Positions 25,865 to 55,429 of a stretch of DNA of 64,000 nt are shown here, one piece after another (within the stretch, counting starts at the first letter, position 1; the number at the start of each line of letters is the position of its first letter). The stretch lies in contig WGLV01000015.1 of assembly GCA_016125385.1 (NCBI GenBank), positions 2,555 to 66,554 of the forward strand, in the 5' to 3' direction. This DNA is from a bacterium. GTDB lineage: Bacteria > Hinthialibacterota > Hinthialibacteria > Hinthialibacterales > Hinthialibacteraceae. Position numbers and translations under genes: made by a program. The notes under the pieces are model-generated. The model saw only the letters and a list, made by a program, of their open reading frames with translations, was not told the origin of the DNA and made no database searches.

Positions 25865-27868
25865 ATGAAGCATTTCAACTGTGTGAAGACCGTCTTGTTG
25901 CTCGCTTTGTTGGCGTTGCCTATCGGGATGGGATGGAGCGCCGATGGCCTCGTCGTCAAAATCGAAAAAGTCACCATTAACACCGATCTGAAGGCCGAAG
26001 TGACCTTCTCCATGACGGATGAAACCGGCGAACCGCTCGGAATCACCGGCGTGACCGAAGGCGGCGACGTTTCCTCGCCCCGTTTCATCCTGAGCTATCT
26101 CGAAGGAACGGATTACCACTGCTACATCACTCGTACGCAGACCGTGCCTGAAGGCTATCCCAACGCGGGCGTGAGCGCCGATCAGGCTACGACCGACAGC
26201 GGTGGAACCTTCGCCGATCTGGGTGGCGGGCGTTATACCTATACGTTCAAAACTGCGGTTCCGGCTGATTACAAAGGCGGATTGACCCATACCGTCAGCG
26301 GCCAGATTTCCCGCCCCGTCGGCGACAATACCTATTATGCGAACCCGGTTCATCATTTCATCCCCAATGGCGGTCAGGTGACCCAGTTGCTGCGCGTTTC
26401 CACTACGGAAACCTGCAACAAGTGCCACACCAGCATGGGCTTCCACGGCGGCAGCCGCAAAGAAATCACCTACTGCCAGACCTGCCACACCGCTGAAAAC
26501 CTTGACCCCGACACCGGCAACAGCGTCGAACTCGGCACGATGATCCATAAGATCCACATGGGCGAACATCTGCCCAGCGTGCAGGCGGGCGTGCCCTACG
26601 AAATCGTCGGCCACAACCAGACCCTGGTTGATTTTTCCGAAATCGCGTTCCCCCAGGCGCCGAATGACTGCACCGTGTGCCATACCGGTGAAGAAGGAAG
26701 CATCTACAAGACCGCTCCCAGCATGAAGGGCTGCGGATCGTGTCACGACGATATTGACTTCGCCAACGGCGTCGGCCATATCAAACAGACCGATAACAGC
26801 ATGTGCGCACTGTGCCACACGCCGGAAGGCTCCGGGTTGTCCATTGTCGACGCGCACGTCGTCCCGGCCAAATCGCCCAAGTTGAAGGGCCTGATCGCTG
26901 AAATCGTCAGCGTCTCCAACACCGCGCCCGGCCAGAACCCGACCATCGTGTACAAATTACATGAAGCCGATGGCACCCCGGTCGCGCCCAGCAGCCTCTC
27001 CAGCAACAACGTGAACTTCGCGGGCCCGACGAAGGAATACACCTCTTATATTCGCGAAGACAGCAAGGGCGCCGTTCAGCAAGGCGACGCCTGGAGCTAC
27101 ACCTTCACCAACCCGATTCCAGCCAACGCGGTTGGAACCTATGCCTTCGCCATTGAAGGCCGCCGCACCGTCACTCTGACCACCATCAGCGGTGAGGTGA
27201 GCGTTACCGAAGGCCTGATGAACCCGATCGCGCTCGCGAAGGTGACCGACGCGCAGCCTGTGGCTCGCCGCGAGATCATCGATCAGAGCAAGTGCAACGG
27301 CTGCCACGGCAGCTTGGGGCTCCACGGCGGTCAGCGTACCAACGTTGAGTTCTGTGTGTTCTGCCACAACCCGAAAGAAAGCGATATCGCGGTACGACCT
27401 GACGGCGTGGGCGGCGGTGTTCCGATTAACTTCTCGTACATGATTCACAAGATTCACCGCGGTTCAGAACTGACCCAGGATTACACGGTGTACGGTTATC
27501 GCAGCTCGGTTCATAACTACAACCACATCGAGTTCCCGGGTATTGAAAACTCCTGCACCATCTGCCATACCTCGAATCCGACGCTGCCGCTTCCCAGCGA
27601 AGTCGCTGCGATTGACTTCACTGACAAAGACGGCAAGCAGGTTCACATTCCGCCGACGACCGCGATCTGCACCTCGTGCCACGACACGCAGGAAGTCGCC
27701 GATCACGCCGCGATGTACAATGCGGGCGGCCAGGAAACCTGCTTTGCTTGCCACGGCCCTGGCGGCTTCAAAGATATCGCGTTGACCCACAAGCTGGACG
27801 TCTTCCTCAACGCGGAAGTCACCTTCGGCGGACAGGGTACCCGCGTCAGCGATTGGCTCATGCAGTAA
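25865..27868 (+). CDS. Decaheme c-type cytochrome, OmcA/MtrC family
   Basis: Ten CxxCH motifs (CNKCH, CQTCH, CTVCH, CGSCH, CALCH, CNGCH, CVFCH, CTICH, CTSCH, CFACH) in two groups of five separated by a beta domain, plus HKIHMG/HKIHRG. AAGGAG RBS and a Sec signal peptide. Confidence 0.93.
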   Translation: MKHFNCVKTVLLLALLALPIGMGWSADGLVVKIEKVTINTDLKAEVTFSMTDETGEPLGITGVTEGGDVSSPRFILSYLEGTDYHCYITRTQTVPEGYPNAGVSADQATTDSGGTFADLGGGRYTYTFKTAVPADYKGGLTHTVSGQISRPVGDNTYYANPVHHFIPNGGQVTQLLRVSTTETCNKCHTSMGFHGGSRKEITYCQTCHTAENLDPDTGNSVELGTMIHKIHMGEHLPSVQAGVPYEIVGHNQTLVDFSEIAFPQAPNDCTVCHTGEEGSIYKTAPSMKGCGSCHDDIDFANGVGHIKQTDNSMCALCHTPEGSGLSIVDAHVVPAKSPKLKGLIAEIVSVSNTAPGQNPTIVYKLHEADGTPVAPSSLSSNNVNFAGPTKEYTSYIREDSKGAVQQGDAWSYTFTNPIPANAVGTYAFAIEGRRTVTLTTISGEVSVTEGLMNPIALAKVTDAQPVARREIIDQSKCNGCHGSLGLHGGQRTNVEFCVFCHNPKESDIAVRPDGVGGGVPINFSYMIHKIHRGSELTQDYTVYGYRSSVHNYNHIEFPGIENSCTICHTSNPTLPLPSEVAAIDFTDKDGKQVHIPPTTAICTSCHDTQEVADHAAMYNAGGQETCFACHGPGGFKDIALTHKLDVFLNAEVTFGGQGTRVSDWLMQ

Positions 27869-27906
27869 TCTTCAGCGCGCTCAAGCGCGTGAAAGATCGA
27901 AGTTCG

Positions 27907-27936
27907 AGGGGAGCGGTTTTTGCCGCTCCCCTTTTT
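27907..27936 (+). terminator. Intrinsic terminator
   Basis: AGGGGAGCGG-TTTTTG-CCGCTCCCCT followed by a T tract. Confidence 0.82.
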
Positions 27937-28344
27937 GTTTGACGCCAAAAATCGTGTTCAACACACTCGCTGATCAACCGCGCCCAAACACCAATGGATA
28001 ATCACCATATTAAAAGTCGACTGGATTTTCATTCATGAATACTAATTGTGTGAAAAATGTCATCTATGAAGTGTGAATTAAAGGGATGAATTTGGTTTTT
28101 TGAAAATGCAGTCAATGCGTGATTATTTCTGCGGTGAACCTGAAGAATATTCTAGTAATAAATGCGTTTTTGAATCACTTGTTCGATTGTATGTTGTATT
28201 TTTTGCAATGTGTTGAATCGAATCTTTTAATATTTGGAAAATAATTGAATTATTTCTGACTGTATGTTTGAATTTTGTTATCAGTATTATAGGGGTGAAC
28301 CGTGTTCGCCCGGCTGCATCATCAATTTTCAGGAGGTTTGTGTT

Positions 28345-30525
28345 ATGTTAAAGAAGTTTGGCTCCGCCATGCTGATATCAGCGTTGGCAGCCGGTTCGGT
28401 TCTGGCTCAGACGGAGAAGATACCCGTCGAGAGTTTCGAGAGCATCGACATCGCGATGACGGGTGGATCGGTTACCGGTTCTCTGGTGGGCGACGTGGCG
28501 TTTGACGACGTCCCCGAGATCGATGGACCGATGGCGCTCTACGTGGAGTATGACGCGACCCCCAGCACTTACTGGTCACAAGCCGCGATCACTCTGCCTG
28601 AACCGCATGACCTGACCGGAATCACGGAATTGCGCTTTTCATTGTATTTTCTTCCGAGCAGCACCACCAACACGAACGGCGAAGTTCCGGTTCGTACCCA
28701 CCTCCCGCCGGATGACGGCTATTCGATGGATTACATCCACCCGGGCGAATGGTACGAAATCACCCTGAAAATCGATCCGTACGTCGCGGAGACGGAGATG
28801 CCAACCTTCGATCTGTTCCGCATGGTTATCAGCGCGGGGCTCGAAGGCAGCGGCGCGTTTTACGTTGACAACATCTACGCGTTGCGCCCCACCAATCCCG
28901 TCGCGCTGGAAGTCGTTCCTCTGTACGGTTTCAACTCCACCAACCCGGGCGCTTCCACGCCTCTGGGCTGGACTCGGGACCAGGCCAGCGTGGATCCTTC
29001 TCTTGGCGCGGATCTGATGACGCCTTCAGAAGGTACGAACTGCATGCTGTTGCCTGTCACGGGCGGTGCGGTTCAGGCGGTTCAGACGCTCCATGCCAAA
29101 GACGATATTGACTGGACGCGAGTCCGGGCGATCTATTTTGACGCCACCGTTACCGATGATTTCTCGACATGGTGCACCGTTCGCCCCTATATCAAATCGT
29201 CTTCCGGCGGTACGACGGTTCCCGAAGAGTTCCGTGGAATCTCCGGCAACAAGGGCTCGTGGAGAACGGTCAGCTACTGGCTCGATCTCGGGCCGCACAT
29301 GAATTCGATCATCGGCGACGGCGACTTCGCGATCGGCATCCGCAACGATAACGGCGGCGAAGCCAATTCTCCCGATGCACAGAATATTCTGATCGATAAC
29401 TTCCGCGTGGGCATGGTTTCTTCCTTCTGCCTGGCGGTTCGTGATTTTGGTCAGAACGCTTCGATTTATGAAGGTTCTTCCGGCTCATATCCGGTGACGG
29501 TCAGTCTGACGATGAAAGGCGACGCCGCGCCGGTTGAAATGGTCGAAATGCTGCCTGAAGGCTGGTCGGCCACCGATATCAGCAACGGCGGCGTTCTGGC
29601 CGATGGAACGATCACCTGGAACCTGGACGTCTCGCCTGACGCGGTTCAGACGCTCAGCTACACCGCGGTATCCCCGGCTTCAATCTCCAAAAAACCCGTC
29701 TGGTCGGGTTCGGTGAACGGTGAAACCGTGTTTGGTTCCGCCGGCCCTGCGTATTTCGACAAGACCGTGACGGATACGCTGGTCGAAGCGCCCCTGCTGT
29801 CAAACACCGTGACTCTCGACGGCGTTATCAGCGCGGGTGAATACGATGGCGCGAATGTGTATACCTTCAACCATGACACTTCGGACGGCAACAAGGCTCC
29901 GGGCGTTCACCTCTCCGGCAAAGAGTACCCCGCCGCCGTTGAAAACATGACGTTCCATGTTTTCCATGACGCGGATTACATCTATGTCGCCGCTGACGTG
30001 GTTGACCCCGACCTCAGCTTCGAGTTCAACGACATCCAGTTCTGGAACGCCGACAGCGCCGAAGTGTATTTCGATGGCAATCTGTCGCGCAGCAACGCGA
30101 TCGAAAGCGAGCGCCATGGTTGCCAGTTGACCGTGGTTGGCGACGGCCGTCTCGCGGCGTCGAACAACAAATATTTCCCCACCATGCTTGACGCGGCCGG
30201 CGGTGGAAAATACATGGAAGACGGGCGCGACGGCGCGGATCAGCCTGTCTACTGGGCGTGTGGCGCCAAAGCCAGCGCCACTGGTTACGTGGTGGAATAC
30301 CGCGTTGCCAAGGCGCAGATCCTGGATCCGGCCAACCGGACTCAGATCGGCTTTGAAGTGATGGTTAACAGCAGTGAAGCGGCCAGCGCGGCCACCCGCA
30401 CGGGTAAGTGGGGCTATCACTGCAGCGACGCCTCCGGCGTTCCGTTCGAAGCGTACAACAACGAAAGCGGTTGGACGCTGATGAACCTGCTGGGCACGTC
30501 GGTAAACGATTGGAGCGTATTCTAG
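28345..30525 (+). CDS. Secreted multi-domain carbohydrate-binding protein (two jelly-roll CBM-like domains, an Ig-like domain, and a CBM9/DOMON-like domain)
   Basis: AGGAGG RBS and signal peptide. Two domains end in FYVDNI and ILIDNF. The last domain has LDGVISAGEY...YIYVAADVVD...DSAEVYFD...IGFEVMVN. Confidence 0.7.
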   Translation: MLKKFGSAMLISALAAGSVLAQTEKIPVESFESIDIAMTGGSVTGSLVGDVAFDDVPEIDGPMALYVEYDATPSTYWSQAAITLPEPHDLTGITELRFSLYFLPSSTTNTNGEVPVRTHLPPDDGYSMDYIHPGEWYEITLKIDPYVAETEMPTFDLFRMVISAGLEGSGAFYVDNIYALRPTNPVALEVVPLYGFNSTNPGASTPLGWTRDQASVDPSLGADLMTPSEGTNCMLLPVTGGAVQAVQTLHAKDDIDWTRVRAIYFDATVTDDFSTWCTVRPYIKSSSGGTTVPEEFRGISGNKGSWRTVSYWLDLGPHMNSIIGDGDFAIGIRNDNGGEANSPDAQNILIDNFRVGMVSSFCLAVRDFGQNASIYEGSSGSYPVTVSLTMKGDAAPVEMVEMLPEGWSATDISNGGVLADGTITWNLDVSPDAVQTLSYTAVSPASISKKPVWSGSVNGETVFGSAGPAYFDKTVTDTLVEAPLLSNTVTLDGVISAGEYDGANVYTFNHDTSDGNKAPGVHLSGKEYPAAVENMTFHVFHDADYIYVAADVVDPDLSFEFNDIQFWNADSAEVYFDGNLSRSNAIESERHGCQLTVVGDGRLAASNNKYFPTMLDAAGGGKYMEDGRDGADQPVYWACGAKASATGYVVEYRVAKAQILDPANRTQIGFEVMVNSSEAASAATRTGKWGYHCSDASGVPFEAYNNESGWTLMNLLGTSVNDWSVF

Positions 30526-30583
30526 GTTCAAACCACGGCGAATCGCCTGCGAAGGTGAATCGCTGAAAATGAACTGGCTCACA

Positions 30584-30616
30584 GAGGGGGAAGCGGGAAA
30601 CCGCTTCTCCCTTTTT
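30584..30616 (+). terminator. Intrinsic terminator
   Basis: GAGGGGGAAGCGG-GAAA-CCGCTTCTCCCTT followed by Ts. Confidence 0.78.
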
Positions 30617-30635
30617 CGTTGTGATAAAAGAAGTG

Positions 30636-31298
30636 TTAAAAAAGATGTTCGCCGCGCAGGTACCTCTCGGCGGCGTTGGGCGTTTTCAGGGCGATTTTCA
30701 GCCCCCAGACGAGGTTGTGCTGGCTGACGTCGAGTTCGAGCTCTTCCATGGCGCGTCGAATCGCGTCGTACTGAATGGAATAGATTTCATTGATCAACGA
30801 GTCGAATTGCATGATGACGGGGAGTCCATGCAACGCGTCGCGGCAGTCTTCGGAATCGGGAGAATGATGAGCCTGGCAGTTCATGGGCCGCAATCCATGA
30901 ATCGTACAACTGTGATTTTCCAGCAGCGGACAATACAGAACTTCGTGCGATTCATGAAACGGGCTGAGCAGGTCTGAATTTTTGATGTAGCGGTCGATAC
31001 GCCGCTTAAGTTGAGTCTGCTCTTTCTGCGGCCATTTGGTTTTGATCTGTTCGGCGATCAGGATGATTTCATAGCTGTGAGCGTTGACGGGGAGAAAACA
31101 ACAGTACGAACAACCGTCGCGGCAGGCGAGATTCTGAATCACGCCGCCGCGATGCAGCGAATCGATAAAGGTATCGATGTACGCGTAACACTCGCGCATG
31201 ACGGTAATGAACACCGACGGGCGCGAATTGCGCTTCAGCGTCCGGATGGATAGACGGGTTTTACGGATGATCTCCCGTTCCGTCAATTCGGTCAGCAT
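30636..31298 (-). CDS. YkgJ-family Fe-S/Zn cysteine-cluster protein
   Basis: CRDGCSYCC and CPLLENHSCTIHGLRPMNC motifs. The ORF is open to 31340. Confidence 0.82.
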   Translation of the reverse strand: MLTELTEREIIRKTRLSIRTLKRNSRPSVFITVMRECYAYIDTFIDSLHRGGVIQNLACRDGCSYCCFLPVNAHSYEIILIAEQIKTKWPQKEQTQLKRRIDRYIKNSDLLSPFHESHEVLYCPLLENHSCTIHGLRPMNCQAHHSPDSEDCRDALHGLPVIMQFDSLINEIYSIQYDAIRRAMEELELDVSQHNLVWGLKIALKTPNAAERYLRGEHLF

Positions 31299-31555
31299 GC
31301 GTCCCCTCTCCCCGTTGCGGCGGCTATTGCGGCCAACCAATACACAGCAATTGTGTTGAAGAATCCTACCATACCAATTTATCGTCTGGATAGGATGAAT
31401 TTGGTTTTTTTGCGAAATTCAATAGAAAAGGTTTATTTAGGGGCGCTGTGTAAATGCAGCAGGTTTCATATAAATATAAATAATATACATGAACGGATTC
31501 CCCCGATTCATACGGCGCGTATGAATCGGGGGCGTTGAAAATCTTCTTGTTCAGC

Positions 31556-33667
31556 TTATTCGATATGAAATCTCCGGACGCCGCGGACTATTTCATCATC
31601 GCCGCGCACCAGCTCGGCGATGAGTTGATATTCGCCGGGGGGCGCGTCAATGTTCATGGTAAATTGAAGATCGCTTTTTCCCAGAGCTTCGGCGCTGCAT
31701 GCCAGGCTCTGTTCGCTGATGATTGCGTCTCCTCGTTGGAGCCGGAGTCTCACCAGTCCACGCCATTCTTCATTGCGATCGTTGATGACGGAAACGGGAA
31801 TCGTTCTTTGTCCGGCGGAGATATGTTCATCCCAGAAATCGATCATCACGCCGGTGGGCGCGAACGCATCTCGCACGGTTTGTTGAAAATGCGGTTCGAG
31901 AACGAGGTTGGCGATATCGAGAAAATGATCGCGGGTCGCGCCCGCCGCGGGACGTTCCAATCCGCCGGGCCGTGAGTATCCCAATCCGCAGAAATGCATA
32001 ACAGCCGCGCATTGGCGGCGTCCGCGCCAGAGCTCGGTGAGTTCGGCGAGGTAACGCGCGTACAATTCTCGCCGCTGTTCGATGGTGGAGTTTTCTCCCA
32101 GAAGGCTGTTGTAGGCTTCGCGCGTCAGGCAGGTCGGCGAACCATCGCGATTAAGCCACAACCAGGCGTATTCATTGATGATCAAAGGATTTTGCTTGTT
32201 CCGCTGAACGTCACGAACGCTTGGGCGGCCATTGTTTCCGTTGAGTTCAGAAAGGTGAAATTCGCCTTTTTGCCAGTATTTGGAGAAAAAATAGGGATGA
32301 GCCTCGATAGAGTCGCCAGGTTGTTGAGGGGCGCCCCATCCGTTATCCCAGGGGCGATTCGACAGATCGAGATTTCTAACTTTCATCAGGGCGTCACCGG
32401 TTTCAGTGGTGACGCTTTCATTTTGCGCGTCCCAGATCACCACGCAGGGGTGGTTCCAGCGCTCGCGCATCCATTCTTTATATTCAGCCGCGATGGCGTC
32501 GCTTTTCAGTTCGGCGGGCCATTCGCTTAGCGACCAGATCGGGAATTCATCCTGAATGAGAAAGCCCAGCTCATCGGCGATGTCGTACCACGCTTCCGGC
32601 GGAAAACCGATACAATAACGAATGCAGTTCCAATTCATGCCGATGAAGGTTTCGTGCAGTTTTTTAACCCAGGCTTCGTCCCACGGCAGATTGCCTCGGG
32701 CGGCGTCCTCAAAAAAACGATAGATGCACACGTTGGTCCCGCGCATGAAGTATGGTTTCCCATTCAGCATCGCCCGTCCGGTTTCCGGGTCGAACTGAAA
32801 CGTGCGCAGCCCAAAGCGTACACTGGCGTCGTCCGCGCCGGTCGTGAGGTTCAGCGTATAAAGAAACGGATCCTCAGGCGACCACAACCGCCCCTCAGGC
32901 ATCGCGATGGTGTAATCGACAAGCCATGATCCGTCCTCCTGGCGTTTGGCGTCACCGATTTCGCCCGATGCGGCGCACTCGCCGCTTTTCGCTTCATGTA
33001 CCGAATAACTCAACTGCGGTGCGCCGGACCCATCATCCGTTTCAAGCACCGCTTGAAAACGGAGCCCGCGTGGTTCGAGAATGGGCGCCGTCTGTATGTT
33101 CGAGATTCTCGGCAGGCCTGTAAGAATCAGGCTGACCGAATCGTAGATCCCCGGAATGTATTTGTATTTTTCGAAATCCCATCCATTGGGCTGTGATTTG
33201 GGGATGGACCCGAGATGCGCGCCAACTCGAATGGTCAGCACGTTGGTTTGACCCTCGCCTTTTAACGCGCCTTTGACGTCAAACCAGCCGGGCGTGAAAC
33301 AGGCCGCGTGATCGCCGATGAGTTCACCGTTCAGGTAAACCCTGGTTCCATACTTGGCTTTATTGATCTTGAGCAGGGCTGATTCGGGAATCTTTCCCTC
33401 CACGGTGAATTCGCGTCGATACCAGAACGCTTCGCGCCGTTGACTGGGGATTCCCACTTCAAAAAAGTCGGGAGAACTCATATCCACCAGACCCGGCACG
33501 GGTACGACGTATGCGAATCGTTCGGGCATGACCTCCATCCCGCCTTCCGCGATGTTCCACCGCCCATCGAGTGATATGACTCGCCTCGCGCCGTCCGCGT
33601 GACTTTGGAGAAGGGGGAAGAGGAGGATGGAGATAACGAACAGGGCGGTTCGCAATAAATGCCGCAT
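31556..33667 (-). CDS. Secreted glycoside hydrolase family 2
   Basis: ISLDGRW sugar-binding domain, LWSPEDPFLY, FGLRTF, LNGKPYFMRG and WNHPCVVIWDAQNE (acid/base Glu). Confidence 0.88.
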   Translation of the reverse strand: MRHLLRTALFVISILLFPLLQSHADGARRVISLDGRWNIAEGGMEVMPERFAYVVPVPGLVDMSSPDFFEVGIPSQRREAFWYRREFTVEGKIPESALLKINKAKYGTRVYLNGELIGDHAACFTPGWFDVKGALKGEGQTNVLTIRVGAHLGSIPKSQPNGWDFEKYKYIPGIYDSVSLILTGLPRISNIQTAPILEPRGLRFQAVLETDDGSGAPQLSYSVHEAKSGECAASGEIGDAKRQEDGSWLVDYTIAMPEGRLWSPEDPFLYTLNLTTGADDASVRFGLRTFQFDPETGRAMLNGKPYFMRGTNVCIYRFFEDAARGNLPWDEAWVKKLHETFIGMNWNCIRYCIGFPPEAWYDIADELGFLIQDEFPIWSLSEWPAELKSDAIAAEYKEWMRERWNHPCVVIWDAQNESVTTETGDALMKVRNLDLSNRPWDNGWGAPQQPGDSIEAHPYFFSKYWQKGEFHLSELNGNNGRPSVRDVQRNKQNPLIINEYAWLWLNRDGSPTCLTREAYNSLLGENSTIEQRRELYARYLAELTELWRGRRQCAAVMHFCGLGYSRPGGLERPAAGATRDHFLDIANLVLEPHFQQTVRDAFAPTGVMIDFWDEHISAGQRTIPVSVINDRNEEWRGLVRLRLQRGDAIISEQSLACSAEALGKSDLQFTMNIDAPPGEYQLIAELVRGDDEIVRGVRRFHIE

Positions 33668-33865
33668 GATGCATGGACCTCGTTGAAGATGAATTCAGGC
33701 TGAATCCCTGTGGCTGCTATTGTTCAATATTCAAGCAGGAAGCGCAATCGCTCTGTGTAACGTGACCTGAAAAGGATTCCATCGTTGATTGTAGACGTTA
33801 GTGTCTTTATCATAGGCTTTTCATATTGGTCCAACCTTGCCGCGAATTGGAGAACGTAACAAATC

Positions 33866-34738
33866 ATGTTTACCCTGATGTGGTTCGTCGCCGCCGGGCT
33901 GGCTCTTGCAGTTGTACTGCAGGAGGCGATGGGGCGTCACCGGCTAACAATATCAAAACTACCGAATGAATACGCCAGCCGGGAAGCGCGCGCTCGCACC
34001 TGGGTGCTATTACAGCGCCAGTGTCAGGTGATGTTGCGCCGCCCGCAGAATTACGTCATTTTTTCACTGGCACTGATCGCGGTCACCGCGATGTTCGCGG
34101 CGGCGTACCAGGGATATGCTGAAAAAATATACGACGCCAATTCCGTTACGCTGGTGGCTCCTCAATTGCTCAATCTCTACCGCATGATCAGCCTGTTCGC
34201 GATCTTTCTCTTCGCGCCCATCATGGGCGTAAACGCGGTGATGCAGGAACGGGATGCGGGTACGCTGGACTTGATTCTGGCTACCGCTACGCACCCGCTG
34301 GAATTCGTGTTTTCCAAAATCGCGGCGTCGATGATCGTGTTGTCGACGGCGATCGTCGCGAGCGCGCCGTTATTGGGAGTTACCTTTCTGATGGGCGGCG
34401 TGGGGCCGGATGAAGTGCTGGTGCTGTTTGTGCTTCAACTCGGCGTGGCGGCGATTTCGATCTCGATCGGGTTGTATACGGGCGCCGCGTTCGACCGTTT
34501 TTTTACCGCACTGATCACCGCTTACATCATCGTCGCGGTTTGCGGCCTGTCACCCTGCTTGGCGGCTGATTTTGGCCAGCCGCGTGAAAATCCATTCGTT
34601 GCATTGTTCGGCGTCGGGGGATCACTGGCTTTTATCTCAGTTATCTTCACAACGATTCCCGGCCTGCTGGCTCGCGAAGTGAAAAAAGTGAAACCGATAT
34701 ATTGGCGGCCAATTCCCCTGATGGGTAAAGACATGTAG
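33866..34738 (+). CDS. ABC-2-type permease-like membrane protein, N-terminal half (ends at an in-frame TAG)
   Basis: Multi-TM protein with QERDAGTLDLILAT...EFVFSKI. It is in the same frame as 34835-35623, with a single TAG between them. Confidence 0.75.
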   Translation: MFTLMWFVAAGLALAVVLQEAMGRHRLTISKLPNEYASREARARTWVLLQRQCQVMLRRPQNYVIFSLALIAVTAMFAAAYQGYAEKIYDANSVTLVAPQLLNLYRMISLFAIFLFAPIMGVNAVMQERDAGTLDLILATATHPLEFVFSKIAASMIVLSTAIVASAPLLGVTFLMGGVGPDEVLVLFVLQLGVAAISISIGLYTGAAFDRFFTALITAYIIVAVCGLSPCLAADFGQPRENPFVALFGVGGSLAFISVIFTTIPGLLAREVKKVKPIYWRPIPLMGKDM

Positions 34739-34834
34739 ATATGGTCGTTTCTGGGAGCGCGGGAGTACGGCGATCCCATCCCCGATGGTCAGAATCCTGT
34801 ATATATTTGTGAGCGCGATCGCTATTTTGCTTCC

Positions 34835-35623
34835 GTGGTGAAGCGCGACTTCGACGCGCCCGCCCTGCTGGTTTTTCTTTCCTGTTTTTTCTGCGTCGCG
34901 TCCGTCTCGCCCCATGTCATGCTGAATTATGGATTGCTGGTCGCGATGATCTTCACCCCCGCGCTGGCGGCCACGTTATTCACCTCGGAACGCGAAGGCG
35001 GCCGTTGGGAAACTCTGCGCTCGACGCAGCTCTCTTCCACTGAGATTGTAGGGGGAAAACTGAAACTGGCCGTGGGGAACGGGCTGATTCATGTTTATGC
35101 ATTTTATCTGCCCGCGCTGATCATTCTGGCCATGTTGTTCTTCACCGCGCTGATGTTGAGCAATAATGGCGTGTTTCGCCTTACGTGGGATAACATCCCC
35201 CGCGTGTGGGTGGGGCACGTGTTGACGCTGGTGGTTCTCTCGCTCAGCGTCTACGCCCTCGCGGCGATGTCGTTCTGGATCTCGACGCGCGAGCGCCGCG
35301 CTTTTCAGGCGATCATGAAATCGTACGCGGCGGCGGCGTTTCTATTGTTTTCGCCCTGGTTTTTCCAGATATTCGTCCCCGGCTATTCCACGGCGGCTGG
35401 TTCTCAGAACGTGAATGGGATATTCCGATTCTTTCTGGCGATCTGGAACGCGCCGGTACTGTTCGAGTACTGGCCCAAAGCCGCCATGAGCGGCCCGAGC
35501 GTTGAATATGACATTTCGCAATTCTGGCCGCTATTCGCCGCTCATATCGCTTTTCTGGCCGCTCTCAGCTTGTTCTTTTATGAATCCGCTCTCCGTAATA
35601 TCAATAACTCACCGCTGGATTAG
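34835..35623 (+). CDS. ABC-2-type permease-like membrane protein, C-terminal half
   Basis: FTSEREGGRWETLRSTQLSSTEIVGGKL motif and multiple TM helices. The reading frame is open back to 34739. Confidence 0.72.
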   Translation: MVKRDFDAPALLVFLSCFFCVASVSPHVMLNYGLLVAMIFTPALAATLFTSEREGGRWETLRSTQLSSTEIVGGKLKLAVGNGLIHVYAFYLPALIILAMLFFTALMLSNNGVFRLTWDNIPRVWVGHVLTLVVLSLSVYALAAMSFWISTRERRAFQAIMKSYAAAAFLLFSPWFFQIFVPGYSTAAGSQNVNGIFRFFLAIWNAPVLFEYWPKAAMSGPSVEYDISQFWPLFAAHIAFLAALSLFFYESALRNINNSPLD

Positions 35624-35647
35624 CGCGGATACAGCGCCGTAATTCTC

Positions 35648-37006
35648 TTACAGTTTCAACTGATCGTTCCAGGCGTCCAGCTCCTTTTTGAGCGCCGCCG
35701 CAAGGTCTGGTTTCTCGTCGAGCCGATTCGTCATCTCGGCGGGATCGTTCTTCAGGTTGGCGAGAAATTCTTTCGGTGTGTTTTCAGACCGGTTGTCGAC
35801 GCCATTCAAAACCAGTTTCCAGTCGCCTTTACGGATGGCGCGCTGCTTGCCGAGACGCCAGTAGACGTGTTCGTGCGGCGAGGGAGAGCCGTGCGCGATC
35901 ATCGGCCATGCGTCGAGCCCGTCGATTCGGTCCGGCGCCTTGCCGCCCGCCAGTTGCATGAACGTGGGGTAGACGTCCATTGTCACGCCGATGTTGTCAT
36001 TCACGGCGCCTTCAGGGACCACGCCCGGCTGGCTGATGATGCAGGGCAGGCGTACGCCGCCTTCAAACAGGCTGAACTTGTGCCCGCGGAATCCGCCGGG
36101 GCTGCCGCCTTCATACAGCGCCTTCTGTTCTTTCGACATGAAATTGCGCTGTTCCATCGACGGCCCGTTGTCGCTCTGAAAGAAGATGGTTGTGTTTTCG
36201 CGCAGTTTCAATCGGTCGACCTCGGCCATGATCTCACCGATACAGTCGTCCAGCGCGGAGACCATCACCGCCTGATGACGCCGTTCGGGCGGCAGGTGAG
36301 AGAAACGGTCGAAATACTCGCTGGGCGCGTGCATCGGGTAGTGGGGGATGTTGAACGGGACGTAAAGAAAAAACGGCCCGTCGTGATTTTCGCGTAAAAA
36401 GCGTTTCACTTCGCGTACCACCAGTTTGGGGAAGAACGAACCGTTCTCCCATACTTCGGTTTCGTTGCGCCATAAGTCATGCCAGGGGACGCTGACGTTC
36501 CAGATGAACAGGTGGGAGTAATTGTCGATGCAGCCGCCGAGATGTCCGAAAAACTCATCGAAGCCGCGCCGGGTGGGGACGCGAGGCCCCGCGCCGCCCA
36601 TGTGCCACTTGCCGAATATCGCGGTGCGGTATCCGAGTTCTTTCATGCTTTGCGGAAGAATGGTCACGTTGGGGTCGAGGCCCTTGTCGTCGCCGCGTCC
36701 TCCCAGGTTTCCATCCACGCCGACCGTCTGCGGATAACACCCCGTCATCAATGAGACGCGTGACGGCGAACACACCGGGCTGTTTGAATACCACTGAGTG
36801 AATCGCGTCCCTCGCGCGGCGAGTTCATCGATATGGGGCGTCTGGATGTCTTCCGCGCCGTAACAACTGAGGTCGCCGTAACCGAGATCGTCGGCGTAGA
36901 AGATGATGAAATTCTGCTTTTTCGAAGCGGCGGCGTGAGCCGGAAATCTCAGGGCGCTTGCGGTGAGCGCGGCGGTTCCATTCATCAGAAACGATCGTCG
37001 ATCCAT
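35648..37006 (-). CDS. Tat-exported arylsulfatase-family sulfatase
   Basis: MDRRSFL twin-arginine signal, ADDLGYGD, formylglycine motif CSPSRVSLMTG and GKWHMG; AGGAGG RBS. Confidence 0.92.
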   Translation of the reverse strand: MDRRSFLMNGTAALTASALRFPAHAAASKKQNFIIFYADDLGYGDLSCYGAEDIQTPHIDELAARGTRFTQWYSNSPVCSPSRVSLMTGCYPQTVGVDGNLGGRGDDKGLDPNVTILPQSMKELGYRTAIFGKWHMGGAGPRVPTRRGFDEFFGHLGGCIDNYSHLFIWNVSVPWHDLWRNETEVWENGSFFPKLVVREVKRFLRENHDGPFFLYVPFNIPHYPMHAPSEYFDRFSHLPPERRHQAVMVSALDDCIGEIMAEVDRLKLRENTTIFFQSDNGPSMEQRNFMSKEQKALYEGGSPGGFRGHKFSLFEGGVRLPCIISQPGVVPEGAVNDNIGVTMDVYPTFMQLAGGKAPDRIDGLDAWPMIAHGSPSPHEHVYWRLGKQRAIRKGDWKLVLNGVDNRSENTPKEFLANLKNDPAEMTNRLDEKPDLAAALKKELDAWNDQLKL

Positions 37007-37152
37007 GATTGGTTTCCTCCTGTTTAATCGAGAACTCACGCCGCACGTTGACGCGGTGTTTTCGGTTATAGCATGATTGGCGAACGATGAATACGGCATC
37101 CGGCGCGTTCGGATGACCTGTTCAAACCTCGATTGCCGGGAGGATGTGAACG

Positions 37153-38301
37153 ATGAGAAAAATATTCGTAAGTTTTGCCGCGTTGGCCGGTCTCCTGTTG
37201 TGCGCCGGACCAGCCTGGGTGGAGCCTTTTAACGGGCTGGGCGTCAACCTGGGCAACCTGTACCGAATGTCCGATGCGAAGACGCGTTCGATCAGTCCGG
37301 AAAACTTCTCCGGCGAAAAAGGTCACGGCGGTCGTGCCACGGAAGGCACGGGAAAACACGCCGCGCGTGAACTGGGCAAAGGGTGGAAAATCTCGCCTTC
37401 GATCGAGATTAAATCGAAAACCACCTTCACACTGGCGGAAATCGATGGGCCAGGCGCCATTCAGCACATCTGGATGACGCCCACCGGTAACTGGCGCTTC
37501 TCGATTTTGCGCATTTATTGGGACGGTGAAAAAGAGCCCTCGGTCGAATGCCCGGTCGGCGACTTCTTCGGCGTGGGGTGGGGTAAGTACGCCCACCTCA
37601 ACTCGCTGGCGGTGTGCGTGAACCCCGGCAGTGCGTTTAATTGCTACTGGGCGATGCCGTTTCGCAAAAAATGCAGAATCACGATGGAAAACATCGATGA
37701 AAACAGCATGCACCTGTACTACCAGATTGATTACACGCTGACAGAGGTTCCCGAAGACGCGGGGTATTTTCATGCGCAGTTCCGCCGGTTCAACCCGCTG
37801 CCGTACAAAGAGGTATATACCCTTCTTGACGGCGTGAAGGGTAAAGGGCAATACGTGGGCACGTACATGGCCTGGGGCGTGAACAATAATGGCTGGTGGG
37901 GCGAGGGCGAGATCAAGTTTTATATGGATGGAGACGAGGAATACCCCACTATCTGCGGAACCGGTACGGAAGATTACTTCTGCGGATCATATGGTTTTGA
38001 AAACAAGGAAGAACATCGTTACGACACTTACTCGACCCCTTATGCGGGCTTTCATCAGGTCATCAAGCCGGATGGCTTTAACGTGTCAGAACAGCGTTTC
38101 GGGCTTTATCGCTGGCATATCGCTGATCCCATCCGCTTTGATAAAGACCTGCGTGTGACCATTCAGGCGCTGGGCTGGCGCTCGGGCGGACGCTACCTGC
38201 CGTTGCAGGACGACATTGCATCGGTGGCGTACTGGTATCAGTCCGAACCGCACGCGCCGTTTCCGCCATTGCCCGATAAGGATTCGCTTGAAGTGAACTG
38301 A
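37153..38301 (+). CDS. DUF2961 (GH172-like) glycoside hydrolase
   Basis: Signal peptide, RSISPENFSGEKG, GPGAIQHIWMT, WWGEGEIKFY, GTGTEDYF and YRWHIADPI. Confidence 0.88.
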   Translation: MRKIFVSFAALAGLLLCAGPAWVEPFNGLGVNLGNLYRMSDAKTRSISPENFSGEKGHGGRATEGTGKHAARELGKGWKISPSIEIKSKTTFTLAEIDGPGAIQHIWMTPTGNWRFSILRIYWDGEKEPSVECPVGDFFGVGWGKYAHLNSLAVCVNPGSAFNCYWAMPFRKKCRITMENIDENSMHLYYQIDYTLTEVPEDAGYFHAQFRRFNPLPYKEVYTLLDGVKGKGQYVGTYMAWGVNNNGWWGEGEIKFYMDGDEEYPTICGTGTEDYFCGSYGFENKEEHRYDTYSTPYAGFHQVIKPDGFNVSEQRFGLYRWHIADPIRFDKDLRVTIQALGWRSGGRYLPLQDDIASVAYWYQSEPHAPFPPLPDKDSLEVN

Positions 38302-48927: not shown

Positions 48928-48932
48928 AAAAT

Positions 48933-50789: not shown

Positions 50790-50970
50790 CGGCACAGAAT
50801 TCTCTTCGATCGCTTCAACGGTCGCTTTAGATGACCTGCTGAATAATCTGTCAGCGTGGTTGTTGTCGGATTTTTTTTGTTTACAAGAGTGTCAATTAAA
50901 AAGTCAATGATACAATCAATTGAAAATAAACGGGAAACAAACGATGAATACGAAACAGATTGGATAATAC

Positions 50971-51315
50971 ATGGCCGCCAGCAACGCTCTCGCTCGTAAA
51001 ATCGAATCGATCTGCTTGAAAGGTGGAATGAAGCAGAGCGATATCGCTCAACTGCTCGCCACCAACCCGGAAACCGTGTCGCGATGGAATCAGGGGAAAA
51101 ATTATCCACATTCGAGCACGGAAACCATTTTGCTTGAATTGGAATATATTATCGATCAGTTATCTGATCTGTACGAACCAGACGAGGCGCGTTTCTGGAT
51201 GTTTTCTCCGCAGAAATATTTTGATGGAAAAAAACCGGCGGACTTGATTCGAGCCGGAAAAATAGATGATGTCAGGCTGCTGGTGAATCAGCTGCGGGAT
51301 TCCGTGTATGGATAG
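50971..51315 (+). CDS. Xre/MbcA/ParS-type antitoxin (HTH plus toxin-binding C-domain)
   Basis: HTH QSDIAQLL...ETVSRW and C-domain ARFWMFSPQKYFDGKKPADLI; overlaps the RES gene start. Confidence 0.85.
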   Translation: MAASNALARKIESICLKGGMKQSDIAQLLATNPETVSRWNQGKNYPHSSTETILLELEYIIDQLSDLYEPDEARFWMFSPQKYFDGKKPADLIRAGKIDDVRLLVNQLRDSVYG

Positions 51316-51867
51316 CCTGTTCGATATTGAATTGACGGACAAATTGAGTGAACTGATTCCCGAGGAGTTTGAAGGTTCTGTTTATCGGGTTACTCGCCAA
51401 AACGTCGATCCCACCGCTCCATCATCCAGCGGTGGCCGCTGGGCCTTGCCGTCGAATGCTGGCGGCAACGGTACGCCGTTTTTTTGTATACGAGCTTGGA
51501 GGAAAGCGGCGCGAAAGCGGAAATCGCTTCGTTCCTTGCGGGTCTCAATCCGCTTCCGACGAAGAAATTATTGCTTACTGTCTTAAGCATCAGTCTACGC
51601 AAGGTGATTACGCTAGGTCATCAGGAATTGGATTATCTGGGCGTCGATCTGAGTCGATATAAGGAAAGAGATTATTCGTATACCCGGGTTATTGGATCGG
51701 CGGTTGGGTTTTTAGGTTTTGATGGGCTGATTGCTCCATCCGCGAGATGGGATTGCAATAATCTCATGATATATACGGAGAATCATTCAATTAATGAAAA
51801 ACTGGAAGTCATTGAGTCTCGTGAATTCGATTGGCTGGAATGGGCGAGATCGAATCGGATTATTTGA
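51308..51867 (+). pseudogene. RES-domain toxin split by a frameshift at a T7 tract
   Basis: The first frame carries VYRVT...SGGRW. The -1 frame continues LYTSLEESGAKAE...GFDGLIAPSARW...NLMIY. The frame switch falls at TTTTTTT (51479-51485). Confidence 0.82.
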
Positions 51868-51924
51868 TGATTACTTTATTTATCCAAATGTAAGCTGAAT
51901 TCGGTTATTCGTCTGTTCCTTCCC

Positions 51925-52974
51925 TTACAAAAACTCCCCTTGCAGGGTTGTCCCCGATGGGCCGGGCAGGCCGAGATGCGCGTATCCCGCCGGCGTGAGA
52001 ACGCGTCCGCTGGGCGTTCGGTTGAGCAGGCCCGTCTGAATCAGAAACGGCTCGTATACTTCTTCCAGCGTGCCTTCATCCTCTCCCAGCGCGATCGCCA
52101 GCGTCTTGAGTCCCACCGGCCCGCCGCCGAATTTTTCCGTGATGATCGTAAGGATGCGCCGGTCCATCTGGTCGAGCCCGAGCCGGTCGATTTCAAGCAG
52201 ACTCAGCGCTTCTCCCGCCACGGCGGCGCTGATGACGCCGTCCGAACGCACCTGTGCGTAGTCGCGAACGCGGCGCAGCAGCCGGTTAGCGACGCGCGGC
52301 GTGCGGCGCGACCGTGACGCGAGTTCGATCAACCCTTCTTCTTCAAAATCGATGCCGAGAATTCCCGCTGAACGCCGTAGAATGCGCGCGATGTCGTCAT
52401 CTTCATAAAAATTGAGCCGGCACTGGATGCCGAAACGGTCGCGCAACGGCCCGGTCAGCATGCCCGAGCGCGTGGTCGCCCCCACCAGGGTAAAGCGCGG
52501 CAGGTCGAGCTTGATCGACTTGGCGTGCGGACCTTCGCCGATCAGCACGTCAATAAAGTAATCCTCCATCGCGGGGTAGAGGCATTCCTCCACGACGCGG
52601 TTGAGGCGGTGAATCTCATCAATGAAAAGCACGTCGCCCTGTTGCAGTTCTGTAAGCAGCCCGGCGAGGTCGGCCTTGCGTTCCAGGATGGGGCCGGAGG
52701 TGGTACGCACGTTGACGTCCATCTCGCGGGCGATGATATGGGCGAGAGTGGTTTTGCCCAGGCCGGGCGGCCCCGCCAGCAGGATATGGTCAAGCGCTTC
52801 GCCGCGCTGGCGGGCGGCCTCGATGCAGATGCCGAGTTGCTTTTTGACCTCGTTCTGCCCAACGAAATGCGTCAGCGATTCGGGACGAATCGAGGTGGAC
52901 GCGAGTTCGTCTTCGGGCGACGCCTCGCGGGCGATGATCCGGTCGGGGTGTTTCGAGTCCATGCGGCCGCTCAT
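51925..52974 (-). CDS. ruvB: Holliday junction branch migration helicase RuvB
   Basis: [41 protein letters not shown] and YEPFLIQ. Confidence 0.97.
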
Positions 52975-53049
52975 GTGTCAAGATAGAGGGACGCGAAGTC
53001 CCTCGCGCCCGGCGGGGCCGGATACATCTTACACGATTTCATCAAGATT

Positions 53050-54216
53050 TCAGGCGATGTAATCGACCATCACATCGGCGGCGGTTCCGCTCGAACCGTC
53101 GCTGCGGAGATAGGAAGCGGTGGAGAGCAGGGAGCCGCCCTGTAATGTAGAGGGCGCGAGGCGTGAATCGAGCTGGATGGCGGCGATGCCCGCTGCGCGC
53201 AGCGATTGCAGTTCGCTGGTTTGCGACACGCCGTCGAGGTTCCGGTCCGAATAAAGCAGCAGGTCGCCATAGATGGCGTCGCGTTCGTCGATGACGCCGT
53301 TCCGGTCGCCGTCGAACTTGCGTAATTCTTCAAATCCGTCGCGCGCGCCGTGTTGATCTCCGAACAGTTCGAGTCCGTTATTGATGAGGCCGTCTCGATT
53401 GCGGTCGAGCGCGAGAAACGCGTCTCCGCCGGTGGCGAAGGCGGTGCGCTCGCGGGTTCCGTCGCCGTTGATGTCGAACATGGCGCCAGACTTGGCGGTG
53501 GTCAGTTCGACGCCGTCGCCGTCGAGATCAATCACGATAGGGTCGGATTGCTGAACCTCGCCCTGTTGCTGAAACTGGACGCTTTCGCTGTTTGAGGCGC
53601 CACCCGAGGGCAAACGGCCTTCGATATGAATGTTGATTTGACCGCGTGTCTCGAGATAGGCGGTGAGATCGGCTTCCAGCTGCGCGGCTCCATCCTGACT
53701 CGAACTGGATGAAGACGAAGACGACTGAAATTCTTCGATGCGGTTCAGCAGGTCTTGCGCGTGGGGATCGTCTTTACTGAGGCTGCGGATCAGATTGATG
53801 TAGGCGTCGAGCTTGGGGTCGCCTTTCGTGTCGATCGCGGGCTCATCGCTCGAATCGCCGTTCTTTCCAGGCGCGGGAGCGTCAAAAAGCCCACCCCCGG
53901 CTATTGAGCCGGAGGTGGACGCGGGTTGCGATTGGCCGGTGAAGGATGCGAGAGAAGGGGTTGACCGGGAAGTCCGGGGGTTCCGCGAAGGCTGCACGCC
54001 CGCCGTTTCGAATGAATCGGCTTGCCGTGCTCCTCCTCGCCGCGTCGGCTGACCGGCGCGGGCGCCGGCGGCGTTCTCGGCTAGAGAGACGAGCGTAACG
54101 CGGCTGACTTGAACCTGACTGCTCTCAACGATCTTGACGGAATCATTGGAGGGAGGAGTTTGACTGCGCGTACTGTTGCGAACGGGAACAACCAGAGCCC
54201 CTGATATCGGATCCAT
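53050..54216 (-). CDS. Hypothetical protein: disordered N-terminus plus RTX-associated calcium-binding domain
   Basis: SDPIVIDLDGDGVELT, FDINGDG, FLALDRNRDGLINNGLELFG and DGDRNGVID DxDxDG loops; no signal peptide. Confidence 0.78.
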   Translation of the reverse strand: MDPISGALVVPVRNSTRSQTPPSNDSVKIVESSQVQVSRVTLVSLAENAAGARAGQPTRRGGARQADSFETAGVQPSRNPRTSRSTPSLASFTGQSQPASTSGSIAGGGLFDAPAPGKNGDSSDEPAIDTKGDPKLDAYINLIRSLSKDDPHAQDLLNRIEEFQSSSSSSSSSQDGAAQLEADLTAYLETRGQINIHIEGRLPSGGASNSESVQFQQQGEVQQSDPIVIDLDGDGVELTTAKSGAMFDINGDGTRERTAFATGGDAFLALDRNRDGLINNGLELFGDQHGARDGFEELRKFDGDRNGVIDERDAIYGDLLLYSDRNLDGVSQTSELQSLRAAGIAAIQLDSRLAPSTLQGGSLLSTASYLRSDGSSGTAADVMVDYIA

Positions 54217-54283
54217 CGCCTCACCTCTTCAACCGACCAAAATCCATCCGTGGATCCAATATGCCTTCCCTGGCTGGCACTAG

Positions 54284-54311
54284 TTGTCGGCTGGAAAGTG
54301 GAAAAACTTGA
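54284..54311 (-). promoter_or_regulatory. Putative sigma28 (FliA) promoter
   Basis: The minus strand reads TCAAG-N15-GCCGACAA about 70 bp upstream of the 54216 start. Confidence 0.55.
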
Positions 54312-54394
54312 GGCGAAATCGACTCCCGAACGCAAGATGTGTGACAGCGACAAGAGAGTTTATGGTCGTTTAGGATCGATTGATTTAACCGGTT

Positions 54395-55429
54395 TCATTC
54401 ATACATCCCATAATCGTTAACGCCAGCCGTCGCATCGGAAATATCGAATATCTCAAGAGGGCCTGATATTGAAGTGAGCATGATGAATTCGCCGTCGGGT
54501 GAGAAGAGACCATATCTCTGTGTTGATTGAAAGACGACGGCTTCTTCCAGCGTTTCGGTGCGGTACAGGTGCGGCGCATGATTGTCGCCTCCCGAACCAA
54601 AGAAAAACTCTCCAGTAGGCGAAACGCCACTAAGTTCTTCGGCGTTTACCGTTTTAAAACCTTCAAACAGATATGTTTCGTCATTCGTGAAATAATTCCA
54701 GCGTCTTAATGTCCATTTCCGCGTGTTATATAGATCAATGGGGATGCGATCCCATATATAGAGGCTCTGCGGATTGGTTGATGGGAAAAATTCGCTGTTA
54801 TATATTTTGGGGAATGACAGAAAAATTTCTTTCTCCCCGGTGGAATAGAAAAAAGTCGGACTATGCCCGATCAGCAAAACATCTTCATTGAGTTTGTTGA
54901 AAAAACCGACGAATTGTTCTGAATAAAGAATCTCTCCTGAATTCGGATCCACCAGCAGTACGAAACCGCCTCCCGCCCAGATCGCGAGCAGAGCGTCGTT
55001 ATGGAAAAAACCGGTTAGTGAAGCGCCCTTGCCTGTGGGATTCGCGTTGTAGTAAGAGCTGAGGTCGAGTTCCAGCGTTCTGACGATATCGCCAGTCTGC
55101 AGATCGATGAATCGGATCGTTGATTTGGTTAGTGTTGAGTTCATGATCGCCAGCGTCGATTCATCGTGGCTGAACGCCATGCCGGGCTGAGCCGCGTACC
55201 CTTCATCCGGAAAGGAATATCGTATTTCTCCACTGTGAAGATCCCATACATCGAAACTCGAATCGCGAATGTTGACCGCGAGATAGGTGGAGCGAGGAGA
55301 AAAGGCGTATGGAACGTACTGATTAAACTTGATTTTCGGCGTGAGCGTGATGACGGCGGCGCAAGAATCCACAACTGCGATAACGAAGGAAAGACATGCG
55401 CATAATGCGAAAAACTTCAGCGTTTTCAC
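54395..55429 (-). CDS. Secreted WD40/YVTN-like beta-propeller protein
   Basis: Signal-peptide-like stretch from the GTG at 55429, with blades AFSPRSTYLAV...VWDL, AFSHDESTLAI and FSPDGEFI. The ORF is open to 55555. Confidence 0.75.
   Translation of the reverse strand: MKTLKFFALCACLSFVIAVVDSCAAVITLTPKIKFNQYVPYAFSPRSTYLAVNIRDSSFDVWDLHSGEIRYSFPDEGYAAQPGMAFSHDESTLAIMNSTLTKSTIRFIDLQTGDIVRTLELDLSSYYNANPTGKGASLTGFFHNDALLAIWAGGGFVLLVDPNSGEILYSEQFVGFFNKLNEDVLLIGHSPTFFYSTGEKEIFLSFPKIYNSEFFPSTNPQSLYIWDRIPIDLYNTRKWTLRRWNYFTNDETYLFEGFKTVNAEELSGVSPTGEFFFGSGGDNHAPHLYRTETLEEAVVFQSTQRYGLFSPDGEFIMLTSISGPLEIFDISDATAGVNDYGMYE

Follow-up and report, generated by a model that had tools for sequence, protein, structure and literature searches.

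A short C-terminal tag on unrelated exported proteins of Candidatus Hinthialibacterota and its candidate role in sorting or anchoring

Introduction

C-terminal sorting tags have repeatedly led to envelope machinery, namely sortases, exosortases, rhombosortases, the type IX secretion system (T9SS), and myxosortases. Here we describe a tail of about 10 residues that recurs at the ends of exported proteins in Candidatus Hinthialibacterota (OLB16), and that was noticed in a 64,000-nucleotide stretch of contig WGLV01000015.1 (GenBank assembly GCA_016125385.1, positions 2,555 to 66,554 of the forward strand), hereafter the window. A sequence-only reading of this window had proposed that a decaheme cytochrome, a carbohydrate-binding protein, and a beta-propeller end in the consensus V-[SN]-D-[WY]-x-[MV]-[QFY]. 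We find that a shared tail motif exists, while the exact pattern is better written as G-T-x-V-x-[DE]-W-[ST]-[LM]-[YF]. The concept of a C-terminal sorting tag is known, and the architecture of this one appears to differ from every described class, as it has about 10 residues and neither a transmembrane helix nor a folded domain. It is shorter than the sortase, exosortase, rhombosortase, T9SS, and myxosortase signals, with neither membrane anchor nor folded domain.

The tripartite signals LPXTG/sortase, PEP-CTERM/exosortase, GlyGly-CTERM/rhombosortase, and MYXO-CTERM/myxosortase resemble the tag in lying at the extreme C-terminus, in their copy number, signature, signal peptides, and unrelated cargo, and in being tied to one lineage. 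They differ from it in that the tag has no transmembrane segment, no Arg/Lys cluster, and no match to a hidden Markov model (HMM), and in that the protein ends there. Seven criteria have been published for small C-terminal sorting signals (bioRxiv 10.1101/2023.06.07.544157), and 5 of them (1, 2, 3, 6, and 7) describe the tag, i.e. C-terminal place, many copies per genome, at least 3 near-invariant residues, signal peptides, and unrelated cargo. A transmembrane helix is missing, since only 0–3 residues follow the signature in our set of 55 tails, and at most 8 (in the MtrC relative P0025), with no hydrophobic stretch. A basic cluster is missing as well, the tails ending in Y/F with a single K or R following occasionally. 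Because nothing hydrophobic or basic follows the tag, processing by a known intramembrane or membrane-anchored transpeptidase is not expected.

The T9SS C-terminal domain (TIGR04183; Pfam Por_Secre_tail, PF18962) is similar to the tag in being C-terminal and devoid of transmembrane segments, in sitting on Sec-exported cargo of many folds, in dividing surface or secreted cargo from periplasmic proteins, and in being abundant per genome within one phylum-level group. However, that domain is a folded beta-sandwich of ~70–100 aa, whereas the tag has ~10 conserved residues that are predicted to be flexible. The host of the tag also lies outside the Fibrobacteres-Chlorobi-Bacteroidetes group, and the tails have no TIGR04183, PF18962, or type-B match. 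Identity with the T9SS domain was rejected for want of both a folded domain and an HMM match. The ~0.6 Mb of lineage loci covered here showed no PorK/L/M/N, SprA, or PorU/V genes. The expectation that the tail would match no described sorting domain is borne out: an NCBIfam search (E ≤ 10) of 10 tails of 70 aa and the window proteins returned nothing on the 10 tails or on 2 of the 3 window proteins and a sorting domain on none of them, and Pfam gave no Por_Secre_tail, PEP-CTERM, or LPXTG match. A description of the motif is absent from Pfam, NCBIfam release 20, and the searchable literature.

Two window proteins carry strong members of the tag

The first tagged protein is a decaheme c-type cytochrome of the MtrC/OmcA family (667 aa; 25865..27868, plus strand), which matches TIGR03507 with 431.7 bits (NCBIfam cut-off 209) and Pfam Mtrc-MtrF_II-IV. 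Its sequence starts with a Sec-type signal peptide (MKHFNCVKTVLLLALLALPIGMGWSA; 25865..25942, boundary approximate), the sole Cys of which is residue 6, in the N-region. Because this Cys precedes the hydrophobic core, the cytochrome has no lipobox. The G-W-[SG]-A-[DE]-G signal junction recurs in most of its closest relatives (e.g. P0011–P0016, P0018–P0020, and P0028). The protein ends in GTRVSDWLMQ (27836..27865), an off-consensus variant of the type found in most MtrC relatives, which scores 22.9 bits against a position-specific scoring matrix (PSSM) of 10 columns built from 78 related tails.

The second is a secreted protein of 726 aa with a CBM9 domain (28345..30525, plus strand; Pfam CBM9_1, E 2e-13). 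It has a Sec-type signal peptide read from the sequence (MLKKFGSAMLISALAAGSVLA; 28345..28407, boundary approximate), whose A-Q-T-E junction is also found in its orthologues, and it ends in GTSVNDWSVF (30493..30522; 25.2 bits). For comparison, the highest PSSM score among 352 control open reading frames (ORFs) is 0.3, and random tails score 10 or more at a frequency of 1.6e-4. The tails of the cytochrome and the CBM9 protein are therefore strong members of a recurrent C-terminal tag, far beyond chance.

The third protein named by the sequence-only reading is a WD40-like beta-propeller (344 aa; 54395..55429, minus strand) with weak WD40-type Pfam matches and a signal peptide (MKTLKFFALCACLSFVIAVVDSCAA; 55355..55429, boundary approximate). 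Translation places all 3 tails where they had been reported, and all 3 proteins start with a Sec-type signal peptide and lack any further transmembrane segment, as had been claimed. Of the 503 stop-to-stop ORFs in the window that reach 60 aa or more, only these 3 real genes and 2 spurious short ORFs have [VIL][SNTDG]D[WYF] within their last 15 residues. The other secreted hydrolases of the window, i.e. an apiosidase-like glycoside hydrolase (GH), GH2, a sulfatase, GH172, and a 3-keto-disaccharide hydrolase, are untagged, again in line with that reading.

The propeller is nevertheless doubtful cargo, so that the shared tail holds for 2 of the 3 proteins. Its tail TAGVNDYGMYE (54398..54430) is a marginal, degenerate match (PSSM -3.9), with Y in place of the near-invariant W, G in place of S, and T shifted by one position. 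Random tails match or beat it with p ~0.03, and such a score is expected once or twice among ~50 genes. The propeller has no orthologues among the 5.8e9 clustered proteins and 1.84e9 representatives searched, which returned generic WD40 proteins only, all untagged. Because secreted WD40 proteins with canonical tails (..STSAVRDWSMF) occur in the lineage (L073), a decayed tag is possible but unproven. A string of the same type as VNDYGMYE, VLDYGM, lies 16 residues before the C-terminus of a 1086-aa secreted protein (L001 12252..15512), and may be either a coincidence or a second, minor variant of the tail.

Structure predictions by AlphaFold2 (AF2) are informative for the cytochrome, where the model has a predicted local distance difference test (pLDDT) value of 92.7. 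Its best Foldseek matches are the Shewanella cell-surface cytochromes OmcA (4lmh, E 1e-32, TM-score 0.66–0.68), MtrC, MtrF, and UndA (TM-score ~0.6–0.68 over the set). In this model the C-terminal extension opens with a small hairpin (FLNA/VTF), and the last 9 residues are the sole C-terminal segment with pLDDT < 50. The predicted tail does not pack against the fold, as would be expected if it were free. The model of the CBM9 protein has a mean pLDDT of 43 from 8 sequences and is uninformative.

The tag is a C-terminal peptide found in one lineage

The logo of the 55 tails reads G(-6) T(-5) x V(-3) x [DE](-1) W(0) [ST](+1) [LM](+2) [YF](+3). W is present in 53 of 55 tails, V in 51, T in 47, D/E in 47, S/T at +1 in 49, and a final Y/F in 51; the stop codon follows the motif directly in 48. 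A short linker rich in Gly, Asp, and Pro separates the tag from the last structural element (a strand) of the cargo. In 141,799 residues of the lineage, there are 44 instances of the core [DE]W[ST]L[YF], always at the extreme end and never internal, against 0 in 150,381 control residues.

At the nucleotide level, every synonymous codon for G, T, and V is used, Ser is encoded by both TCN and AGY (ACN where the residue is Thr), and 6 Leu codons and 3 stop codons are in use. The 50 nt downstream of the stop show no conservation. Synonymous sites vary freely, and selection therefore acts on the peptide. A DNA or RNA element at gene ends was rejected as the source of the tail because of these free synonymous sites, the 3 stop codons, and the unconserved 50 nt after the stop.

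The tail is far more frequent than chance, and it is so in one lineage, as the frequency test proposed with the original observation required. We scanned one genome each of 185,579 species (596 Gb) with a 33-nt degenerate pattern, back-translated from G-T-x-V-x-[DE]-W-[ST]-L-[FY]-stop. It matched 45 times, 41 of them where a long ORF ends in one of 15 related metagenome-assembled genomes (MAGs) labelled "bacterium" or "Ca. Omnitrophota", i.e. relatives of OLB16/Hinthialibacterota. The remaining 4 are chance matches in short spurious ORFs of Endozoicomonas, Dysosmobacter, Saccharicrinis, and a Kiritimatiellaeota MAG, 3 of which end in TGG with no stop. A single MAG (CAXXMV01) holds 8 matches, and one locus (L032) has 3 tagged genes within 22 kb. 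The labels are in keeping with taxonomy, OLB16 (Hinthialibacterota) having formerly been placed in Omnitrophota (PMC9324843). Together with the names of the nearest MtrC relatives and of one CBM9 orthologue (see below), they make a MAG of Hinthialibacterota/OLB16 the most likely source of the window.

Loci that were not chosen by the pattern give the same picture. Specifically, 18 of 186 ORFs are tagged in such lineage loci (242 kb), 8 of them non-bait (~one per 30 kb), against 0 of 396 ORFs in control loci, i.e. MtrC loci of other phyla (494 kb). From these loci we estimate that the tag is present on a few percent (roughly 3–5%) of the genes of this uncultured phylum. A pattern scan of metagenomes added 27 stretches, of which ~16 are real further cases, from sludge and lake samples; the habitats of the phylum are sludge reactors, lakes, and the subsurface.

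Tagged proteins are exported and otherwise unrelated

When 65 non-redundant tagged ORFs were compared by BLAST without their tails, they formed 24 clusters of unrelated cargo. CBM9-like proteins (24 ORFs), MtrC (9), and true WD40 propellers (4) are accompanied by Peripla_BP_6 proteins, a 1751-aa LTD-CotH-LamG protein, an SGL/PPC protein, a heparinase II/III-like protein, and PKD proteins, and many tagged proteins have no Pfam match. A shared terminal domain was rejected as a general explanation of the tail on account of the 24 clusters, with CBM9-like proteins over-represented among them (24/65).

The prediction that tagged proteins would be enriched in signal peptides also stands. Using a simple hydrophobicity rule, we call a signal peptide in 49 of 52 N-complete tagged ORFs compared with 101 of 270 untagged ones (an earlier, cruder count gave Fisher p = 1.5e-7), and 48 of the 49 have no further transmembrane segment. 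The 3 tagged ORFs without a signal peptide resemble wrong starts or fragments. A type I secretion signal was rejected on the same count (49/52), as substrates of that system have no Sec signal peptide. A lipobox is neither enriched nor clearly excluded (3/48 tagged vs 8/69 untagged, p = 0.52), and the 3 tagged "lipoboxes" resemble false positives. Proteins that are untagged in the same loci include sulfatases, GH2, GH106, GH172, a rhamnosidase, and most glycoside hydrolases nearby. At one locus (L032 12439..17637), 3 Peripla_BP_6/LppC-like genes stand in tandem, the outer 2 tagged and the middle one untagged, with no ABC permease nearby.

The tag is conserved in orthologues and is an add-on in the MtrC family

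The CBM9 protein has 8 full-length orthologues with 63–67% identity and one partial orthologue, named Ca. Hinthialibacter sp. All 8 full-length orthologues end in [GS]-T-x-V-x-[DE]-W-x-[LV]-F, one of them with 2 extra residues (QN), and T718, V720, W723, and F726 are invariant alignment columns of these tails.

In the MtrC family, the 25 closest relatives of the cytochrome (P0010–P0034) have a C-terminal extension of ~25 aa that ends in T-x-[VI]-x-x-W-x-[LMI]-[HFQY]. By contrast, the next 95 homologues (P0035–P0129) lack this extension and nearly all end in ...VHA[RHQE] after the last haem domain; 3 of the untagged homologues have short, unrelated extensions. The nearest relatives are labelled "bacterium", "uncultured bacterium", or "Ca. 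Omnitrophica/Omnitrophota", and the named sources of P0035–P0129 are Acidobacteria or Thermoanaerobaculia. Since one MtrC clade has the tail and its relatives do not, the tail is an add-on.

Together, these data leave hardly any credence for the view that there is no tag, i.e. that the tails are a chance resemblance, the end of one shared domain, or a translated DNA/RNA element such as a terminator, repeat, or recombination site. In its favour, the propeller tail is no better than chance and a CBM9-like domain is common to 24 of 65 tagged ORFs. Against it stand window tails of 23–25 bits compared with a control maximum of 0.3, the diversity of cargo clusters, the gain or loss of the tail inside the MtrC family, the free synonymous sites with no conservation downstream of the stop, and the concentration of collection-wide matches in one lineage. 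The MtrC gain or loss, the codon freedom, the PSSM scores, and the 24 cargo clusters effectively refute it.

Within MtrCAB-like clusters of the lineage, the tag is present on the MtrC-like protein and absent from the MtrA-like cytochromes, and the barrel has a classical beta-signal end (...GVNF, ...GVHF, or ...SVRF). The cytochromes compare with Shewanella MtrC and OmcA, which are likewise surface-type decaheme cytochromes of a porin-cytochrome module. However, the Shewanella proteins have an N-terminal lipobox (lipoprotein anchor with the type II secretion system, T2SS), whereas those described here have a plain signal peptide and a C-terminal tag instead.

Per genome, the tags of MtrC proteins consistently stray further from the consensus than those of other cargo. 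For example, GTRVSDWLMQ pairs with GTSVNDWSVF and GGTRVPFWQQY with GTDVERWSLY, and many relatives end in W-x-[IL]-H. Weaker constraint on MtrC is one possible cause, and a second partner, e.g. the MtrAB module, is another. The MtrC-like gene of the window is solitary and adjoins a sigma-54 response regulator (23997..27868 together), a neighbour kept in the window, L001, L077, and L082. In related genomes, the MtrC-like gene is part of a porin-cytochrome cluster that also encodes MtrA-like multihaem proteins and an MtrB-like barrel (clusters compared: L080 4812..12055, L033 10001..17093, L001 2812..8361, and L002 23..4549).

A probable role in sorting or anchoring after Sec export

The tail is a cargo-independent C-terminal tag of Ca. 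Hinthialibacterota, and we propose that it probably serves in sorting or anchoring after Sec export. The N-terminal signal peptide would first direct the protein through Sec across the inner membrane. The tail, being flexible and having a C-terminus that is free or nearly so, would then be recognised, as an added strand or a short turn, by a receptor dedicated to it in the periplasm or outer membrane, and this binding would lead to outer-membrane crossing, cell-surface retention, or both. Untagged exported proteins, such as the sulfatases and most glycoside hydrolases, would remain periplasmic. Because the surface-type cytochrome is tagged and the MtrA-like cytochromes, the barrel, the sulfatases, and most glycoside hydrolases are not, we favour a tag by which proteins of the surface or exterior are told apart from those of the periplasm.

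How such a tail might be read is suggested by analogy. Strand addition at a free end, by which C-termini are recognised by PDZ domains, PapD-like chaperones, and Bam components, may apply here too. In chaperone-usher pilus subunits, the chaperone captures a C-terminal strand that has a Gly upstream of a near-terminal aromatic, and it does so by strand addition that anchors the carboxylate. The tag resembles this PapD-type motif in having a conserved C-terminal strand with a near-end aromatic and an upstream Gly, and capture of this kind is a plausible model for reading a tail of ~10 residues. However, the chaperone-usher motif lies within an Ig-like pilin fold of one protein family only, whereas the tag is on unrelated cargo, and the neighbourhoods of tagged genes showed neither chaperone nor usher genes.

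The beta-signal of outer-membrane proteins and the aromatic C-termini read by BamA/BamD and the DegS PDZ domain share with the tag a terminal Y/F at the extreme C-terminus, and are presumably read, like the tag, in the periplasm from a free end. The beta-signal, however, has hydrophobic residues at 0, -2, and -4 (counted from the terminal residue) and is a membrane strand of a barrel, whereas the tag has S/T at -2 and D/E at -4 and sits on soluble cargo. Identity with the beta-signal was rejected given these polar positions (S/T 49/55, D/E 47/55), the soluble cargo, and the ...GVNF, ...GVHF, or ...SVRF ends of the lineage's own barrels.

Aromatic-x-aromatic C-termini activate DegS, and the end of the tail resembles them. 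It is therefore conceivable, if improbable, that the tail is a ligand of a periplasmic PDZ-protease (HtrA/DegP/DegS-like or Prc/Ctp-like) and may act in turnover, maturation, or envelope-stress sensing and not in localisation. On sequence grounds only, [ST]-[LM]-[YF]-COOH fits the class I PDZ ligand rule (S/T at -2 in 49/55, a hydrophobic residue at 0, here Y/F in 51/55, at the exact end in 48/55), and HtrA-type Trypsin-PDZ and M50-PDZ genes are present in lineage loci. A degron or stress signal on ~3–5% of genes, in an exported subset and kept at 63–67% identity, is however hard to rationalise. The upstream G, T, V, D/E, and W are also conserved, beyond the usual needs of a PDZ ligand, and the true outer-membrane barrels of the lineage retain an ordinary beta-signal.

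Neighbourhood data bear on a further alternative, which we consider unlikely, namely that the tail is a docking or retention peptide and no signal for translocation. It would bind a scaffold non-covalently, in a dockerin-cohesin or donor-strand manner, with export itself taking a general route (e.g. T2SS); candidate scaffolds would be a surface layer, pili or pseudopili, and outer-membrane proteins. The tag is very short and flexible, is often on binding modules (CBM9, LamG, PKD, and WD40), and is found on an MtrC that has no lipobox and so needs another means of retention on the cell. Recurrent untagged neighbours of the tag in lineage loci are Gfo/Idh/MocA-like oxidoreductases, FG-GAP/VCBS-like proteins, sigma-54 regulators, and GspG-like pseudopilins. 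The pseudopilins are numerous, and their genes sometimes adjoin tagged genes (L043, L050, L063, L069, and L082); they are direct, co-directional neighbours in L043 and L063 and lie ~220 nt upstream in L050. However, their density of ~one per 70 kb in both tag-selected and unselected loci shows no enrichment near tagged genes, and no scaffold gene was found. Docking also overlaps with the sorting or anchoring role that we favour, which may involve secretion or anchoring. The window itself has no secretion machinery, and its GspG-like pseudopilin paralogue (4673..5245, plus strand), which has an N_methyl motif (GFTLIELLIVVAIIGILAAIAVPNF) and a weak T2SSG match, is not surrounded by a T2SS operon.

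A more specific form of the sorting role, which we put forward tentatively and regard as rather doubtful, is that Hinthialibacterota have an outer-membrane translocation or surface-attachment pathway of their own, for which the tag is the linear, transplantable export signal. A new translocon, or a T2SS-type machine that recognises a C-terminal peptide (for example via a GspC-like PDZ domain), would then be its reader.

Several observations weigh against the sorting or anchoring role, or limit how far it can be taken. Neighbourhood clustering of lineage loci found no partner gene. The logo comes mostly from pattern-selected matches, so that the consensus appears sharper than it really is; unselected tails are looser, above all on MtrC, although the W is retained in them, position -3 is still [VI], +2 is hydrophobic, and +3 is aromatic, His, or Gln. 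Between 1 and 3 residues follow the motif in 7 of 55 tails, and 8 in P0025; because of these trailing residues, a free carboxylate exactly at the Y/F is not obligatory. The number of tags per genome is an extrapolation from loci rather than from complete genomes. The diversity of cargo is real but uneven, as a CBM9-like domain is present in 24 of 65 tagged ORFs. Lastly, 2 tagged proteins are of the Peripla_BP_6 solute-binding type. Because some cargo is thus ordinarily periplasmic, the destination could be the periplasmic face of the envelope and not the surface.

An MtrC-type cytochrome is needed for extracellular electron transfer, and the signal for outer-membrane crossing is, to our knowledge, still an open problem in type II secretion. 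If the tag is a linear export signal, ~100 or more proteins per genome, including the cytochrome of extracellular electron transfer, would be routed by a 10-residue code that can be read directly from sequence. Should its reader be a T2SS-type or novel translocon, the tag would be a rare, simple linear signal for crossing the outer membrane. In either case it provides a well-defined handle on the envelope biology of an uncultured phylum, and it would allow proteins set apart from ordinary periplasmic ones, such as polysaccharide-binding proteins and the MtrC-type cytochrome, to be predicted from their sequences.

Other genes of the window

The window also encodes a two-gene defence system with a short prokaryotic Argonaute (pAgo; 16145..19365, minus strand). 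A protein of SIR2-APAZ type (17569..19365; PADLOC Aga_SIR2-PNTD1-PNTD2, E 2e-186; Pfam SIR2_2) lies upstream of the short pAgo (16145..17572; PADLOC pAgo class I, E 4e-178), and the pair is a SPARSA-like NAD-depleting system. Lastly, a dense set of exported polysaccharide-degrading proteins occupies 31556..38301 and 61144..62481, and includes GH2, a sulfatase with a Tat signal, GH172/DUF2961, and a 3-keto-disaccharide hydrolase, all of them untagged. Such a set agrees with a lifestyle based on sulfated polysaccharides, as has been proposed for Ca. Hinthialibacter (PMC9324843).

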